From: Escherichia coli
GTDB lineage: Bacteria; Pseudomonadota; Gammaproteobacteria; Enterobacterales; Enterobacteriaceae
Direction: 5' to 3' (one strand)
Length of the DNA: 64,000 nucleotides
NCBI RefSeq assembly: GCF_003334405.1
Contig: NZ_QOWM01000010.1
Shown in pieces: positions 4,200-24,324 of this stretch (positions within the stretch are counted from its first letter, which is position 1; every line of letters begins with the position of its first letter). The notes under the pieces are model-generated. The model was not told the origin of the DNA, searched no databases, and worked only from the letters and a program-made list of their open reading frames with translations. Both the position numbers and the translations under genes were made by a program.

Positions 4200-4998
4200 A
4201 GCAACGGAGATCCTGACAGGTAAAGTTATGCAAAAATCGGTCTTAATTACCGGATGTTCCAGTGGAATTGGCCTGGAAAGCGCGCTCGAATTAAAACGCC
4301 AGGGTTTTCATGTGCTGGCAGGTTGCCGGAAACCGGATGATGTTGAGCGCATGAACAGCATGGGATTTACCGGCGTGTTGATCGATCTGGATTCACCAGA
4401 AAGTGTTGATCGCGCAGCCGACGAGGTGATCGCCCTGACCGATAATTGTCTGTATGGGATCTTTAACAATGCCGGATTCGGCATGTATGGCCCCCTTTCC
4501 ACCATCAGCCGTGCGCAGATGGAACAGCAGTTTTCCGCCAACTTTTTCGGCGCACACCAGCTCACCATGCGCCTGTTACCCGCGATGTTACCGCACGGTG
4601 AAGGGCGTATTGTGATGACATCATCGGTGATGGGATTAATCTCCACGCCGGGTCGTGGCGCTTACGCGGCCAGTAAATATGCGCTGGAGGCGTGGTCAGA
4701 CGCACTGCGCATGGAGCTGCGCCACAGCGGAATTAAAGTCAGCCTGATCGAACCCGGTCCCATTCGTACTCGCTTCACCGACAACGTCAACCAGACGCAA
4801 AGTGATAAACCAGTCGAAAATCCCGGCATCGCCGCCCGCTTTACGTTGGGACCGGAAGCGGTGGTGGACAAAGTACGCCATGCTTTTATTAGCGAGAAGC
4901 CGAAGATGCGCTATCCGGTGACGCTGGTGACCTGGGCGGTAATGGTGCTTAAGCGCCTGCTGCCGGGGCGCGTGATGGACAAAATATTGCAGGGGTGA
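4189..4998 (+). CDS. ybbO: Short-chain dehydrogenase/reductase (NAD(P)-binding), 269 aa
   Basis: ORF track 269 aa; Rossmann motif TGCSSGIG and SDR catalytic YAASK. Start overlaps the tesA 3' end by 11 nt. Confidence 0.93.
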   Translation: MTHKATEILTGKVMQKSVLITGCSSGIGLESALELKRQGFHVLAGCRKPDDVERMNSMGFTGVLIDLDSPESVDRAADEVIALTDNCLYGIFNNAGFGMYGPLSTISRAQMEQQFSANFFGAHQLTMRLLPAMLPHGEGRIVMTSSVMGLISTPGRGAYAASKYALEAWSDALRMELRHSGIKVSLIEPGPIRTRFTDNVNQTQSDKPVENPGIAARFTLGPEAVVDKVRHAFISEKPKMRYPVTLVTWAVMVLKRLLPGRVMDKILQG

Positions 4999-5016
4999 GT
5001 TGAAGCGCGCGCTTAA

Positions 5017-5913
<897 letters not shown>

Positions 5914-5942
5914 TATTCCGTTGATCGGCACATGAACCACAA

Positions 5943-5968
5943 CGCCGGATGCGATGCTGCGCATCCGG
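5943..5968. terminator. REP-like GC-rich hairpin between convergent cnoX and fetB (probable bidirectional terminator)
   Basis: Inverted repeat gccggatgcg ... cgcatccggc read directly in the sequence between two convergent stop codons. Confidence 0.6.
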
Positions 5969-5975
5969 CATCGCA

Positions 5976-6755
5976 TCATTTCTTCTTCAATTGCGTCACC
6001 ACCAACTGGTGGCGCGAATTATAAAACTTACGATAGGTTAAATAGCAGGCAATAATGGTCGACAAGCTGGCGGTTGAGAGCAGCATAAAGGTCACCATAA
6101 TCTGATATTTAATCGCCTTCACCGGATCAATCCCGGCAAATATCAGCCCGGACATCATTCCTGGTAAACTCACTAAGCCAACCGTTTTTGCTGAATCGAC
6201 CGTCGGAATTAAAGCCGCGCGAATACTGTCGCGAATCAATATCGCTGAAGCCTGCTTCGGCGTCGCACCAAGACTCAGTTTCTCCTGAATCTGTTGCTGT
6301 TCGCTAATGACCCGTTGCCCTAAATTGTTGTAACACAACCCCACCGCTACCATGGCGTTACCGGCAATCATCCCGGCGATAGGGATCACCTGCATCGGGA
6401 TAAATTCAATCGACCCTGAGAGAATCAGCACCGCCAGGGTAATTCCCGCCCCGACCGTAATGGCAATAAACGATGAGATAAAAGCTTTAGCAATATATTT
6501 ACTGCGTTTTTGCGCGTTCCACGCCGCATTAAAGCAGATAAATAACACCATCAATAATGTCAGGCTGGCATCATCCACGCTGAAAATATACTTCAGCACA
6601 TAGCCGACAATAATCAGCTGAATTATCGCTCGCCCGACGCTCCAGAGAATATCTTTCTCCAGCGCCAGTTTTTCTTTATGGCTAATTAAGATTGCCACCA
6701 CCACCAGCATTAATGCCAGTGCTAATGATTCGTTAGTAATATTATGCGAGTTCAT
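5976..6755 (-). CDS. fetB: Iron-export ABC transporter permease, 259 aa
   Basis: ORF track 5976..6782; trimmed to the ATG at 6755 (MNSHNITNESLALA...). Polytopic membrane protein; its start overlaps the fetA stop. Confidence 0.9.
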   Translation of the reverse strand: MNSHNITNESLALALMLVVVAILISHKEKLALEKDILWSVGRAIIQLIIVGYVLKYIFSVDDASLTLLMVLFICFNAAWNAQKRSKYIAKAFISSFIAITVGAGITLAVLILSGSIEFIPMQVIPIAGMIAGNAMVAVGLCYNNLGQRVISEQQQIQEKLSLGATPKQASAILIRDSIRAALIPTVDSAKTVGLVSLPGMMSGLIFAGIDPVKAIKYQIMVTFMLLSTASLSTIIACYLTYRKFYNSRHQLVVTQLKKK

Positions 6756-7419
6756 AGCGTGCTTCCTGCATTTCTCCGGCATGCGGTTGCAGTGTAATCA
6801 CTTTATCCGCATGATTAATTTCGTCTTTATCGTGTGTCACCCACAGCACGGCAATATTTTGCTCGCGCACATAACGATGGATCATCTCATTGACGTTATG
6901 TTTATTACTTTCATCCAGCGCACTGGTTATTTCATCCAGCAATAAAACCTTCGGCATAAATTGCAGGTTACGAATCAATGAGATGCGTTGTTTTTCACCA
7001 CCAGATAGCTCGGCGATATTCTTCGTCAAAATGCTGTCCGGCAAGGCGAAGCGTTCGAGAAAATCGAGAAAAATGGCTGGGTCAGGCTGCCGGTTACGGA
7101 TCTGCCAGGGAAAGATCAGATTATCGTATACCGTATCGCCAAACAGCGTCGGTGTCTGGGCGCAGTAAGAGACTTGTTGGCGGTAGATTTCTGGCTTTAG
7201 TGTGCTGACATCCTCACCTTCAAACAGTAACGTTCCGCTGGTTGGGCTGATCAATGAAGCAACTATTTTTAGCAGCGTACTTTTGCCACAACCAGAAGGA
7301 CCGGTAATTAACTTAAATTCGCCAGCACGCAGCGAAAAATTGATGTTATTAAGAATCTTCGCATCACCCGCCAGATATCCTACGTTTTGTAGCTGAAGCA
7401 AAGGACTATTTTCCTGCAT
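6742..7419 (-). CDS. fetA: Iron-export ABC transporter ATP-binding protein, 225 aa
   Basis: ORF track 225 aa; Walker A GPSGCGKST, signature LSGGEKQR, Walker B LLLDEITS. Confidence 0.93.
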   Translation of the reverse strand: MQENSPLLQLQNVGYLAGDAKILNNINFSLRAGEFKLITGPSGCGKSTLLKIVASLISPTSGTLLFEGEDVSTLKPEIYRQQVSYCAQTPTLFGDTVYDNLIFPWQIRNRQPDPAIFLDFLERFALPDSILTKNIAELSGGEKQRISLIRNLQFMPKVLLLDEITSALDESNKHNVNEMIHRYVREQNIAVLWVTHDKDEINHADKVITLQPHAGEMQEARYELA

Positions 7420-7564
7420 CGCTGTTCCCTTTTTCTGATTTTTACTAAAAACAGTTTATCCTTCGCAGGAATAAGGGGGAACTCTCTTTCAGTAATCAGG
7501 TATAATTTGTTTAATCAAGCAGCAATTTTGCTGATTATGGACGGTACAACAGGAGGTTTTTCCG

Positions 7565-8482
7565 ATGCTTATCTTTATCCCGATTCTCATTTTTGTCGCG
7601 CTGGTCATTGTCGGCGCGGGTGTCAAAATCGTACCGCAGGGCTATCAGTGGACAGTAGAACGCTTTGGTCGCTATACCAAAACGTTACAGCCGGGGCTCA
7701 GTCTGGTGGTGCCGTTTATGGATCGCATTGGTCGCAAGATCAATATGATGGAGCAAGTGCTCGATATCCCTTCCCAGGAAGTTATCTCGAAAGATAACGC
7801 CAACGTTACCATCGACGCCGTGTGCTTTATTCAGGTGATTGACGCGCCGCGCGCGGCTTATGAAGTCAGCAATCTGGAGCTGGCGATCATCAACCTGACC
7901 ATGACTAACATCCGTACCGTGCTGGGTTCAATGGAACTTGACGAAATGCTCTCTCAGCGCGACAGCATCAACTCACGCCTGCTGCGTATTGTCGATGAAG
8001 CCACCAACCCGTGGGGGATTAAAGTCACCCGTATTGAAATTCGCGACGTGCGCCCACCGGCAGAGCTTATCTCTTCAATGAACGCGCAGATGAAAGCGGA
8101 ACGTACCAAACGCGCTTACATTCTTGAAGCGGAAGGGATCCGTCAGGCGGAAATCCTCAAAGCCGAAGGTGAAAAACAGTCGCAAATCCTGAAAGCGGAA
8201 GGCGAACGTCAGTCGGCGTTTTTACAGGCTGAAGCGCGTGAACGTTCCGCCGAAGCAGAAGCCCGCGCCACCAAAATGGTGTCTGAAGCTATCGCCTCCG
8301 GTGATATTCAGGCGGTGAACTACTTCGTAGCGCAGAAATACACCGAAGCGTTACAGCAGATCGGTTCCTCCAGTAACAGCAAAGTAGTGATGATGCCATT
8401 AGAGGCCAGCAGCCTGATGGGGTCGATTGCCGGGATTGCCGAGCTGGTGAAAGACAGCGCCAACAAACGGACTCAGCCATGA
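7565..8482 (+). CDS. qmcA: SPFH/stomatin-prohibitin family membrane protein, 305 aa
   Basis: ORF track 305 aa; N-terminal TM helix, SPFH domain and C-terminal coiled coil with repeated [29 protein letters not shown]. Confidence 0.93.
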
Positions 8483-8937
8483 TGGAGTTAATGGTCGTTC
8501 ATCCACATATTTTCTGGCTCAGTCTCGGCGGTTTGCTGCTGGCAGCCGAGATGCTGGGCGGAAATGGTTATTTGTTGTGGAGCGGCGTGGCAGCGGTGAT
8601 TACCGGCCTGGTGGTCTGGCTGGTGCCGCTGGGTTGGGAGTGGCAAGGGGTAATGTTTGCCATCCTGACGCTGCTCGCCGCCTGGCTGTGGTGGAAATGG
8701 TTGTCGCGGCGGGTGCGCGAACAAAAGCACAGCGATAGTCATTTAAACCAGCGCGGGCAGCAGCTGATTGGCCGACGTTTTGTGCTGGAATCTCCGCTGG
8801 TCAACGGGCGCGGTCATATGCGCGTCGGTGACAGTTCATGGCCTGTCAGCGCCAGCGAGGATCTCGGTGCAGGTACGCATGTTGAAGTCATTGCGATAGA
8901 AGGGATAACCCTACATATCCGAGCCGTCTCGTCTTAA
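8479..8937 (+). CDS. ybbJ: NfeD-like inner membrane protein (partner of the SPFH protein), 152 aa
   Basis: ORF track 152 aa; hydrophobic N-terminal half plus a C-terminal OB-fold-like soluble segment. Start overlaps the qmcA stop by 4 nt. Confidence 0.9.
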
Positions 8938-9345
8938 TCACCCTGCCCGATGATGACAGCAGCCGGAGAGATTTTCGATAATCGGGCAGTCGGCGCTGTC
9001 ATCGCCAGGGCAGGCATTCGCCAGTGCCAGCAGCTGGTCGCGCATGGATTGCAGCTCCTCAATGTGTCGTTCGATCTCCGCCACCTTCTCCAGCGTGCGC
9101 CGTTTGACGTCGGCGCTGTGCCGCTGCGGGTCGTTAAACAGATTCACCAGCTCGCCGCTCTCTTCCAGGTTAAAGCCCACCTGCCGTGCCTGGCGCAGTA
9201 AGGTCAGTTCGTTGAGATGCTGCTGCGTGTAGGTGCGATAACCGTTTTCGCTGCGCATCGGCGGCGTCACCAGCCCCTTCTCTTCATAGAAGCGAATGGC
9301 TTTGCTGGTCAGGCCGGTAATTTTTGCTACATCGCTGATGTTCAT
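8938..9345 (-). CDS. cueR: MerR-family Cu(I)-responsive transcriptional activator, 135 aa
   Basis: ORF track 135 aa; [26 protein letters not shown] helix-turn-helix and C-terminal metal-binding cysteines ([10 protein letters not shown]). Confidence 0.95.
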
Positions 9346-9469
9346 CGTTCGCGCAACGCCTCCTGTGCTTTGTTAAAGGGTTTCAACAGATATTCAAGCA
9401 CGTTTTTTTGCCAGTGCGAATATCGACCGCCACCACAATAATACAGGAAGTACTGCGCACAGAGAGATG

Positions 9470-10762
9470 TTATACGGTTTTATTGCGCTTCATGACCATT
9501 GCCACAATAAGGCTGAGTAAGAGTGAGCCAATAATCCATATCAACGCACGGCTACCCTGGGACCACAGACTGTAGATAAAGCCAACGATCACCAACAACA
9601 TCACCAACGTACCAACGATAAGAATCGGCAACGAGGCGTGAATATCATGACGCAGGCGGATCGCCACCACAAACACCGCCAGGTAGCAAATCAAAAAGGT
9701 GGCGCTGGCAACGCTGGCGAGTGAGCCTAAATTCAGTGCCGCCGTCATCAGCATAATCAACACCACGACAATAATGTTGCCCCAGGTACTCTGCCGCCAC
9801 AGGGATTTATTCATTAGCTTCGGCAGTTCGCGTTCGCTGCCCATGTTGTCCATGATGTTAAACACGGCGAACAGGTTCGCGTTAATGGCTGAAGCCGTCG
9901 CCAGTAAAGCGCCGATGACGACGATCACATAACCCACATGCCCGAGCAGCGGAGAAGCAGCCTGCGCTACGGCGGTATCGGCATATTTTTCTAACTCTAA
10001 TGCCGATACATCGCTAAGCAAAACCAGTGCCAGCGAGATATAAAGCAACGTGGTAACGCCAATCGCCACCAGAAACGCCCGTGGCATAATGACCTGCGGA
10101 TCTTTCACTTTATCCGCCGCGTTCGCCATCATGCCAAAGCCCGCATAGGCAAGGAAAGTTATCCCAATACAGGAGAAGAACGCACCGGAGCTGGGGGGCG
10201 CAGAGACGGAAATATGCGCCGGTTGCAGCGACCAGACACCGGCAATAATCAGCAATAACAGGATCATCATTTTAATGCCGACGAGGATCACTTCCAGCCG
10301 CCCTACCGCATGGTTGCTTAAGGAGTTGAAAAGCGTCATCACCGCAATGATCCCCAACGCGTAGAGCAAAATAAGGTGCTCCTCCTGGCTGCCTTCATGC
10401 AAAAACTGCACGGCATAAGCGCCAAAAGCACGGGCGACCATGGCGATGCTCACCGCCAGCGTCAACAGGTACAGTAACGAGAGCGCCAGCGAAAAGACGC
10501 CGTTGCCTAATCCGCGACGAAAGAAGTCGATAATGCCGCCATTGCTGGGATAGCTCGCCCCCAGACGCGCATAGGCATAACCGGAAAACATCGCCACAAT
10601 ACCGCCAAAAGCAAAGGCGACCCAGGTCGAGGCTTCCATTAGCAATGCAGCCTGCCCCAGCAGCGCGAAGATCCCCGCCCCCACCATTGCCCCAATGCCG
10701 ATGGAAACGACGTTCCATAGACCGAGAGGTTTGTTACCGTTATTACCTTCCGTGTTCATCAT
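9470..10762 (-). CDS. ybaT: APC-family amino-acid transporter, 430 aa
   Basis: ORF track 430 aa, about 12 predicted TM helices; lies immediately downstream of glsA on the same strand. Confidence 0.92.
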   Translation of the reverse strand: MMNTEGNNGNKPLGLWNVVSIGIGAMVGAGIFALLGQAALLMEASTWVAFAFGGIVAMFSGYAYARLGASYPSNGGIIDFFRRGLGNGVFSLALSLLYLLTLAVSIAMVARAFGAYAVQFLHEGSQEEHLILLYALGIIAVMTLFNSLSNHAVGRLEVILVGIKMMILLLLIIAGVWSLQPAHISVSAPPSSGAFFSCIGITFLAYAGFGMMANAADKVKDPQVIMPRAFLVAIGVTTLLYISLALVLLSDVSALELEKYADTAVAQAASPLLGHVGYVIVVIGALLATASAINANLFAVFNIMDNMGSERELPKLMNKSLWRQSTWGNIIVVVLIMLMTAALNLGSLASVASATFLICYLAVFVVAIRLRHDIHASLPILIVGTLVMLLVIVGFIYSLWSQGSRALIWIIGSLLLSLIVAMVMKRNKTV

Positions 10763-23364: not shown

Positions 23365-24324
23365 ATGAAGCCGGAAAACAAACTACCTGTTCTGGACCTT
23401 ATTTCTGCTGAAATGAAGACCGTTGTGAATACTCTTCAGCCGGATTTACCGCCCTGGCCCGCAACGGGAACGATTGCTGAGCAACGACAGTATTACACGC
23501 TTGAGCGCCGATTCTGGAATGCGGGCGCTCCAGAAATGGCAACCAGAGCTTACATGGTTCCAACAAAATATGGGCAGGTGGAAACACGTCTCTTTTGTCC
23601 GCAGCCAGATAGCCCAGCGACGCTATTTTATTTGCATGGAGGCGGTTTTATTCTCGGCAATCTCGATACCCACGATCGCATCATGCGCCTGCTGGCAAGC
23701 TACAGCCAATGTACGGTGATTGGTATTGATTACACCCTTTCACCTGAAGCGCGTTTTCCGCAAGCGATAGAGGAAATTGTGGCTGCTTGTTGTTATTTCC
23801 ACCAGCAGGCGGAGGATTATCAAATCAATATGTCCCGCATTGGCTTTGCCGGTGATTCCGCAGGTGCCATGCTGGCGCTCGCCAGTGCGTTGTGGTTGCG
23901 TGATAAACAGATCGATTGCGGTAAAGTTGCGGGCGTTTTGCTGTGGTATGGGCTTTACGGATTACGGGATTCCGTGACTCGTCGTCTGTTGGGCGGTGTC
24001 TGGGATGGCTTAACGCAACAGGATTTGCAGATGTACGAAGAGGCATATTTAAGCAACGACGCGGACCGCGAGTCGCCGTATTACTGTCTGTTTAATAATG
24101 ATCTCACTCGCGAAGTTCCGCCCTGTTTTATTGCCGGGGCGGAGTTCGATCCGCTGCTGGATGACAGCCGTCTGCTTTACCAGACGTTAGCGGCGCATCA
24201 GCAGCCCTGTGAGTTCAAACTCTACCCAGGCACGCTGCACGCCTTTTTGCATTATTCACGGATGATGAAAACCGCCGACGAGGCTCTTCGCGACGGCGCT
24301 CAGTTCTTTACCGCTCAGCTTTAG
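23365..24324 (+). CDS. aes: Acetyl esterase (hormone-sensitive-lipase family), 319 aa
   Basis: ORF track 319 aa; oxyanion-hole motif HGGGF and nucleophile motif GDSAGA. Confidence 0.95.

Follow-up and report, generated by a model that had tools for sequence, protein, structure and literature searches.

Abutting stop codons of ybbJ and cueR in Escherichia coli: an ordinary tail-to-tail junction, with Rho-dependent termination on the cueR strand

When two convergent genes have no DNA left between them, where do their transcripts end, and does the arrangement do anything beyond saving space? The question is raised by ybbJ and cueR of Escherichia coli, which face each other tail to tail in the window (the whole 64,000-nt stretch of DNA analysed here, from contig NZ_QOWM01000010.1). 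A preliminary description had read their stop codons as directly abutting, and the sequence bears this out: positions 8930-8940 read cgtctTAATCA, which leaves 0 intergenic bases (Table 1). Each frame stays open as far as its own stop, so neither gene ends at an earlier in-frame stop. The segment 6338-11338 of the window is the exact reverse complement of MG1655 512000-517000, and the MG1655 reference annotation already carries the abutment, with cueR at 513993..514400 (+) and ybbJ at 514401..514859 (-). The arrangement is therefore real and was correctly read; it is also ordinary, already annotated and already catalogued.

Table 1. Features of the ybbJ-cueR region, in window coordinates.
Feature	Position	Strand	Description	Source
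qmcA	7565..8482	+	SPFH/PHB-domain membrane protein; gene 1 of the qmcA-ybbJ operon	MG1655 b0489
Rho-dependent (bicyclomycin-sensitive) termination peak	8350..8350	-		PMC7815308
ybbJ	8479..8937	+	NfeD-family membrane protein, 152 aa; stop TAA at 8935-8937	ORF list, MG1655 annotation
C-rich, G-poor stretch, candidate rut region	8521..8650	-	+287 to +416 past the cueR stop	
Junction TAA/TCA	8935..8940		0 intergenic bases; in E. coli also the insertion site of alternative alleles	
cueR	8938..9345	-	Cu(I)-responsive MerR-family regulator, 135 aa; stop TGA (+ strand TCA, 8938-8940)	
Imperfect hairpin	8942..9015	+	starts 5 nt past the ybbJ stop, within the cueR 3' coding region; U-tract absent	
Weak terminator-like site, candidate	9302..9330	+	8-pair stem with 3 G-C pairs, then TTTTTGCTAC	
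3' remnant of an HlyD-family type I secretion adaptor gene, ~95 nt	9342..9440	-	overlaps the cueR start	RefSeq pseudogene

The CueR of the window is identical to PDB 1Q05 at 135 of 135 residues, C-terminus included, and matches the NCBIfam equivalog NF007590 over residues 1-135 of 135 with 308.6 bits (cut-off 244); a full-length equivalog match combined with identity to a characterised protein identifies it as CueR. Residues 94-148 of YbbJ match the Pfam NfeD domain PF01957 (E = 5e-12), and the last four residues, 149-152 (AVSS), lie past that match. The TGA of qmcA and the ATG of ybbJ overlap by 4 nt (ATGA, 8479-8482), and the qmcA product gives weak HflK/HflC-type SPFH matches in NCBIfam. 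With an NfeD domain of its own and an SPFH gene coupled to it, ybbJ belongs to the NfeD family found in SPFH-NfeD operons.

The base rate of such tight spacing was obtained from all convergent CDS pairs annotated in six 50-kb stretches of MG1655, 39 pairs in 300 kb altogether. Spacing was zero or negative in 8 of the 39 pairs: cueR/ybbJ (0 nt), hemH/aes and yrbL/mtgA (-4 nt each), yhbQ/yhbS (-14 nt), pmrR/basS (-25 nt), tfaP/tfaE (-29 nt), ymfI/ymfJ (-63 nt) and ymgM/cvrA (-129 nt). Two further pairs of the same sample lie no more than 7 nt apart. When prophage and small-protein genes are left out, 4 of 35 pairs have a spacing of zero or less. The geometry of cueR/ybbJ is thus within chance, and zero spacing is a common state of convergent genes rather than an outlier. 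Three of the pairs, hemH/aes, yrbL/mtgA and yhbQ/yhbS, resemble cueR/ybbJ in being arranged tail to tail and in appearing, all of them, on the published excludon list discussed below. They differ in detail: hemH/aes and yrbL/mtgA interlock at -4 nt, whereas K-12 cueR/ybbJ stands at exactly 0; in other genera, cueR/ybbJ too is most often found with its stops interlocked at -4. The hemH/aes pair happens to lie in the same window, where the stops of hemH (-) and aes (+) interlock (CTTTAGCG) in a 4-nt tail-to-tail overlap at 24321-24324; it is the second zero-spacer convergent pair of the window.

Without a spacer, any RNA that includes the stop codon of one gene must run antisense into the other. 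The preliminary description had concluded from this that the 3' ends of the two transcripts overlap in antisense, and published RNA-seq supports that conclusion, with direct evidence on the cueR strand only. The pair cueR-ybbJ is one of 165 convergent overlaps that ExcludonFinder (NAR 2025) records in at least 50% of 58 RNA-seq samples of MG1655 (PMC12288877). As tail-to-tail neighbours on opposite strands, ybbJ and cueR have the orientation that the operational definition of a convergent excludon calls for. They are like the catalogued cases (PMC12288877, PMC4161252) in being convergent neighbours with a 3' overlap defined by RNA-seq, but the list itself is operational, drawn from coverage thresholds, and their distance of 0 contrasts with a mean intergenic distance of 95 nt among listed excludons (PMC12288877). 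Such overlap is widespread: in Conway et al. 2014, 276 of 370 convergent operons of E. coli K-12 (75%) have 3' ends that overlap, by 286 nt on average (PMC4161252). The claimed overlap is therefore right, and it is the general rule for convergent operons. Every tight pair of our 39-pair sample sits on the excludon list, so for a tight pair the call is almost automatic; overlap alone says nothing about regulation.

If each transcript invades the opposite gene, what ends it? One answer would be a terminator at the junction itself. Intrinsic bidirectional terminators require a G+C-rich hairpin, flanking A- and T-runs and an intergenic spacer. They serve the same need, that of ending two converging transcripts, but the spacer hairpin that they require is absent at cueR/ybbJ. 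We considered, and rejected, the idea that the coding tails conceal such a terminator, intrinsic or bidirectional: the consensus scan finds no terminator-like site at 8900-9000, and folds of both strands and of 48 orthologous junctions give no signal either. At the stops there is no G+C-rich hairpin followed by a U-run, and 60-nt segments centred on the stops in 48 taxa fold like their shuffles (mean z -0.18 and -0.45 on the two strands). No Rfam family matches 7400-9600 at a threshold as loose as E = 1; cueR, ybbJ and qmcA are absent from the TERMITe supplementary tables; and the curated Term-seq table of Adams et al. 2021 holds no mapped 3' end at MG1655 513,900-515,099 (PMC7815308). The absence of Term-seq ends fits diffuse ends, low abundance or both.

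The imperfect hairpin of Table 1 deserves separate mention. The 161-nt + strand segment that holds it folds with z = -2.0, and the - strand fold at the junction is unremarkable. Its inner 9-bp stem (8952-8960 / 8995-9003) is kept in 25 taxa, with compensatory change at 0 pairs; what variation there is consists of A-U pairs turned into G-U pairs by synonymous changes at the third base of NNY codons. In cueR, the codons for C-C-H, in the C-terminal motif, are the reverse complement of those for D-D-S, in the metal-binding loop, and the stem exists because the codons of these conserved motifs happen to match in this way. We therefore reject the stem as a selected RNA structure, given that covariation is nil and protein conservation explains it. 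The hairpin as a whole might still act as a stop for exonucleases. A candidate antisense promoter at 8953-8982 (+), just past the ybbJ stop and pointing into cueR (ATGACA-18-GATAAT, 10 of 12 matches), was likewise discarded as being at chance level; with 3.0 such sites expected from shuffled sequence, the scan of 3.6 kb returned 2.

On the cueR strand, the published data point to Rho. Adams et al. 2021 report a peak of Rho-dependent termination at MG1655 514988 (+) (PMC7815308, supplementary file 2), which corresponds to position 8350 (-) of the window. This places it 588 nt beyond the stop of cueR, in RNA antisense to the 3' part of qmcA. Reads upstream and downstream of the peak number 61 and 5 in untreated cells, and 68 and 86 with bicyclomycin; the Rho score is 15.4 (p = 2.7e-12) (PMC7815308). 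As this score is computed from 800-nt windows, the peak is located only coarsely (PMC7815308). In the same dataset, 51.5% of Rho termination regions are antisense to genes (PMC7815308). Upstream of the termination zone, the untranslated cueR-strand RNA contains a C-rich, G-poor stretch, our candidate rut region, in which C makes up 44-50%, G 15-18% and the C/G ratio reaches 2.4-2.9 (78-nt windows); C exceeds G all through +1 to +420. Opposite this stretch, on the other strand, lies the G-rich part of ybbJ that codes for its transmembrane region. The cueR readthrough thus resembles the Rho cases of Adams et al. 2021 (PMC7815308), a bicyclomycin-sensitive antisense RNA with a C-rich, G-poor stretch upstream, but differs from them in that its rut is a candidate and its promoter of origin an assumed one. 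An antisense promoter within ybbJ, and not that of cueR, could instead be the source of the Rho-terminated RNA.

The opposite strand gives fewer indications. For the ybbJ-strand readthrough, the tables of Adams et al. 2021 (PMC7815308) contain neither a mapped 3' end nor a Rho region. This RNA shows a modest C enrichment, with C/G up to 1.45, until about +600. A weak terminator-like candidate lies about 365-390 nt past the ybbJ stop, antisense to the N-terminal codons of cueR (Table 1). The scan that picked it out returned 9 sites against 3.7 +/- 2.0 expected, so the site is not compelling alone, and no Term-seq 3' end is reported at 9302..9330 (Adams et al. 2021, PMC7815308).

The age of the junction was assessed in a species scan with one genome per species, which covered 80 Enterobacteriaceae loci, ybbJ being within reach in 77. 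Compact spacing (-47 to +5 nt) occurs in 48 of the 77 species: -4 in 30 of them (interlocked stops), +3 in 11, 0 in 3, and +5, -9, -14 and -47 once each. In the other 29, as in 41% of E. coli genomes, cueR and ybbJ are 84-3051 nt apart. Past its conserved G-I-T-L, YbbJ carries a tail of 5-19 aa (49 compact loci), and past the conserved G-C-C-H, CueR of the compact loci carries one of 2-8 aa. The DNA between the two motifs measures 29-59 nt (median 32; 39 in K-12), which means that a real spacer of about 30-50 nt exists and has been absorbed by both reading frames. Whichever gene faces the cueR tail lies 0-3 nt away or overlaps it by 4 nt. Judged from this comparison of sequences, the compact junction looks ancestral for the family.

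Two observations from the scan concern individual loci. In 25 species (Citrobacter and some Kosakonia, Phytobacter and Siccibacter), ybbJ is followed on its own strand, before cueR is reached, by two further genes, encoding a PA5441-family protein (714 aa) and a protein of about 250 residues (251 aa), as at 4408-7238 of locus L011 and 4412-7278 of locus L073; in these loci the last extra gene has its stop at -4 or 0 relative to that of cueR. In Enterobacter mori (L040, 4365-4411), the ybbJ frame continues for 19 codons past G-I-T-L and overlaps cueR by 47 nt.

Taken together, we favour, with a probability of roughly 0.8, the reading of this locus as an ordinary, ancient and compact tail-to-tail junction without a terminator of its own, where Rho ends the antisense RNA and where compaction of the spacer has been neutral. 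Between the conserved ends of YbbJ and CueR there is only the short spacer measured above, devoid of a terminator hairpin, and both frames run through it as short, variable C-terminal tails to whatever stop comes first; that the two stops stand side by side in K-12 would be happenstance. Each RNA polymerase, meeting no spacer, would proceed antisense into the opposite gene. Ribosomes would leave the cueR RNA at its UGA, and the untranslated RNA beyond, being antisense to the G-rich codons of the ybbJ membrane segments, is C-rich and G-poor. Rho would load on this RNA and halt transcription about 450-600 nt downstream, in the 3' part of qmcA, so that the cueR RNA would overlap the whole of ybbJ. 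The qmcA-ybbJ RNA would in turn run antisense into cueR and probably end by Rho, by the weak hairpin and T-run near the 5' end of cueR, or by both. With Rho to end the untranslated antisense RNA, the spacer would never have needed a terminator. The Rho-terminated RNA is presumed here to come from the cueR promoter, and neutrality is the presumed mode of compaction; near-zero spacing across many genera could also reflect selection.

Selection is central to the alternative that fares best, a functional excludon in which polymerase interference, or the cutting of duplex RNA by RNase III, would set cueR and qmcA-ybbJ against each other and the overlap itself would be selected. We regard it as improbable, and equally improbable its corollary that copper sensing is thereby coupled to membrane-protein quality control. 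The presence of cueR-ybbJ on the excludon list, the retention of near-zero spacing in 48 of 77 species from many genera and a cueR-strand readthrough that spans all of ybbJ are what such a device would lead one to expect; the listing, however, is near-automatic, as every sampled tight convergent pair is on it, and the pairing is evidently dispensable, the genes being apart in 41% of E. coli genomes and, across species, in 29 of 77. The exact spacing, moreover, drifts. The papers found to name both genes describe no functional link between them, and we found none reported between copper or cueR and qmcA.

Variation within E. coli bears on a second alternative, namely that the abutment is a recent product of the K-12 lineage, left when an island like that of O157:H7 was lost from between ybbJ and cueR. 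Three alleles of the right-hand junction account for 5422 of 5426 complete E. coli genomes. The K-12-type abutment (0 nt at the cueR stop) is found in 3204 genomes (59%); an O157-type island of about 2.6 kb, with 3 nt between the end of its last ORF and the cueR stop, in 1252 (23%); and an insert of about 0.83 kb, whose last (frameshifted) ORF has a TAA that abuts the cueR stop, in 966 (18%). That some 41% of genomes hold an island or an insert at this point, that inserts are also present in E. albertii and in a cryptic Escherichia clade, and that the other flank of cueR has itself suffered a deletion would all suit a scar. On that promoter side, K-12 retains the remnant listed in Table 1, which shares 94.9% nucleotide identity with O157:H7, where an intact HlyD-family gene follows a T1SS permease/ATPase gene and overlaps the cueR start by 4 nt; from this comparison, the promoter-side flank of K-12 is clearly a deletion scar. 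At the junction, by contrast, a scar is very unlikely. Compact junctions are the majority outside Escherichia, and the K-12 YbbJ tail (LHIRAVSS before the stop) is like those of Salmonella (AVSST) and Kosakonia (AVSK), an ancestral tail that a deletion would have been unable to recreate. In the insert-bearing Escherichia alleles, ybbJ ends in LIIRAVIA, with 10 of its last 28 nt different, and REP elements follow.

Several details of these alleles may be recorded here. The island contains genes for a YadA-like adhesin, a lipoprotein and hypothetical proteins. The polymorphism maps to 8911-8940 of the window, to 6511-9172 of locus L001 and to 2011-2867 of locus L002, and in every E. coli allele some ORF ends 0-3 nt from the cueR stop. 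The junction is a recurrent insertion point in both Escherichia and Citrobacter. The end of K-12 ybbJ resembles the CGTCTTA(A)TCAC found beside REP elements in other alleles, and an origin of the tail as a REP remnant was entertained; it was rejected on the ground of a codon-for-codon alignment between the K-12 and Salmonella tails. In E. coli SCPM-O-B-8794 (L007, 4402-4557), the C-terminus of CueR is replaced and extended, ending in KAECLKTYPDEAQKT, and a 112-nt gap separates it from ybbJ.

Against the reading of the junction as ordinary and neutral one may also set a more specific proposal, in which the junction, lacking a terminator, serves as a conserved means of regulation. Transcripts running on from qmcA-ybbJ would interfere in antisense with cueR and so dampen it; in genera where copA is divergent to cueR, they would go on to cover copA in sense, so that a signal acting at the qmcA-ybbJ promoter, such as SdiA/AHL, could raise copA independently of CueR. 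The gene order in Enterobacter cloacae, copA(-) cueR(+) ybbJ(-) qmcA(-) (L064, 1393-5771), is such that qmcA-ybbJ readthrough across antisense cueR would enter copA in sense. In that species, copA and srgKJ (qmcA-ybbJ) have both been reported to be SdiA-regulated (PMC11619404), a shared regulation that the proposal, if true, could explain. We consider it a long shot.

Finally, termination near the junction by polymerase collision or by a hairpin-programmed bidirectional signal, guided by a stem-loop and leaving only a short true overlap, is barely credible: programmed head-on collisions have been proposed for convergent pairs of E. coli (bioRxiv 10.1101/2022.10.23.513370) and a hairpin does begin 5 nt past the ybbJ stop, but the model needs a stem-loop between the gene boundaries, where cueR/ybbJ has no space, and it is at odds with the absence of a conserved junction hairpin, the lack of covariation in the nearby stem, a bicyclomycin-sensitive signal about 590 nt downstream and the rarity of collisions if, as we assume, both genes are weakly expressed.

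As a discovery the junction carries little weight, given that the abutment is in the reference annotation, the overlap is catalogued and tight convergent pairs are common. On the reading that we prefer, cueR/ybbJ is a clean example of how Rho termination would let convergent genes lose their spacer entirely. There is also a practical side to the geometry. In K-12, deleting or tagging the C-terminus of either gene changes the stop context and the 3' RNA of the other, and a marker inserted at the junction would alter antisense transcription over both.

One locus of the species scan stands out by its label. Contig CACSKA010000001.1 (L051), deposited as Chryseobacterium sp. 18061, bears an Enterobacteriaceae cueR-ybbJ locus, with a CueR 86% identical to that of E. 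coli and a junction nearly that of Citrobacter sp. 18056 (L057) from the same project; its label is probably wrong or its assembly contaminated.
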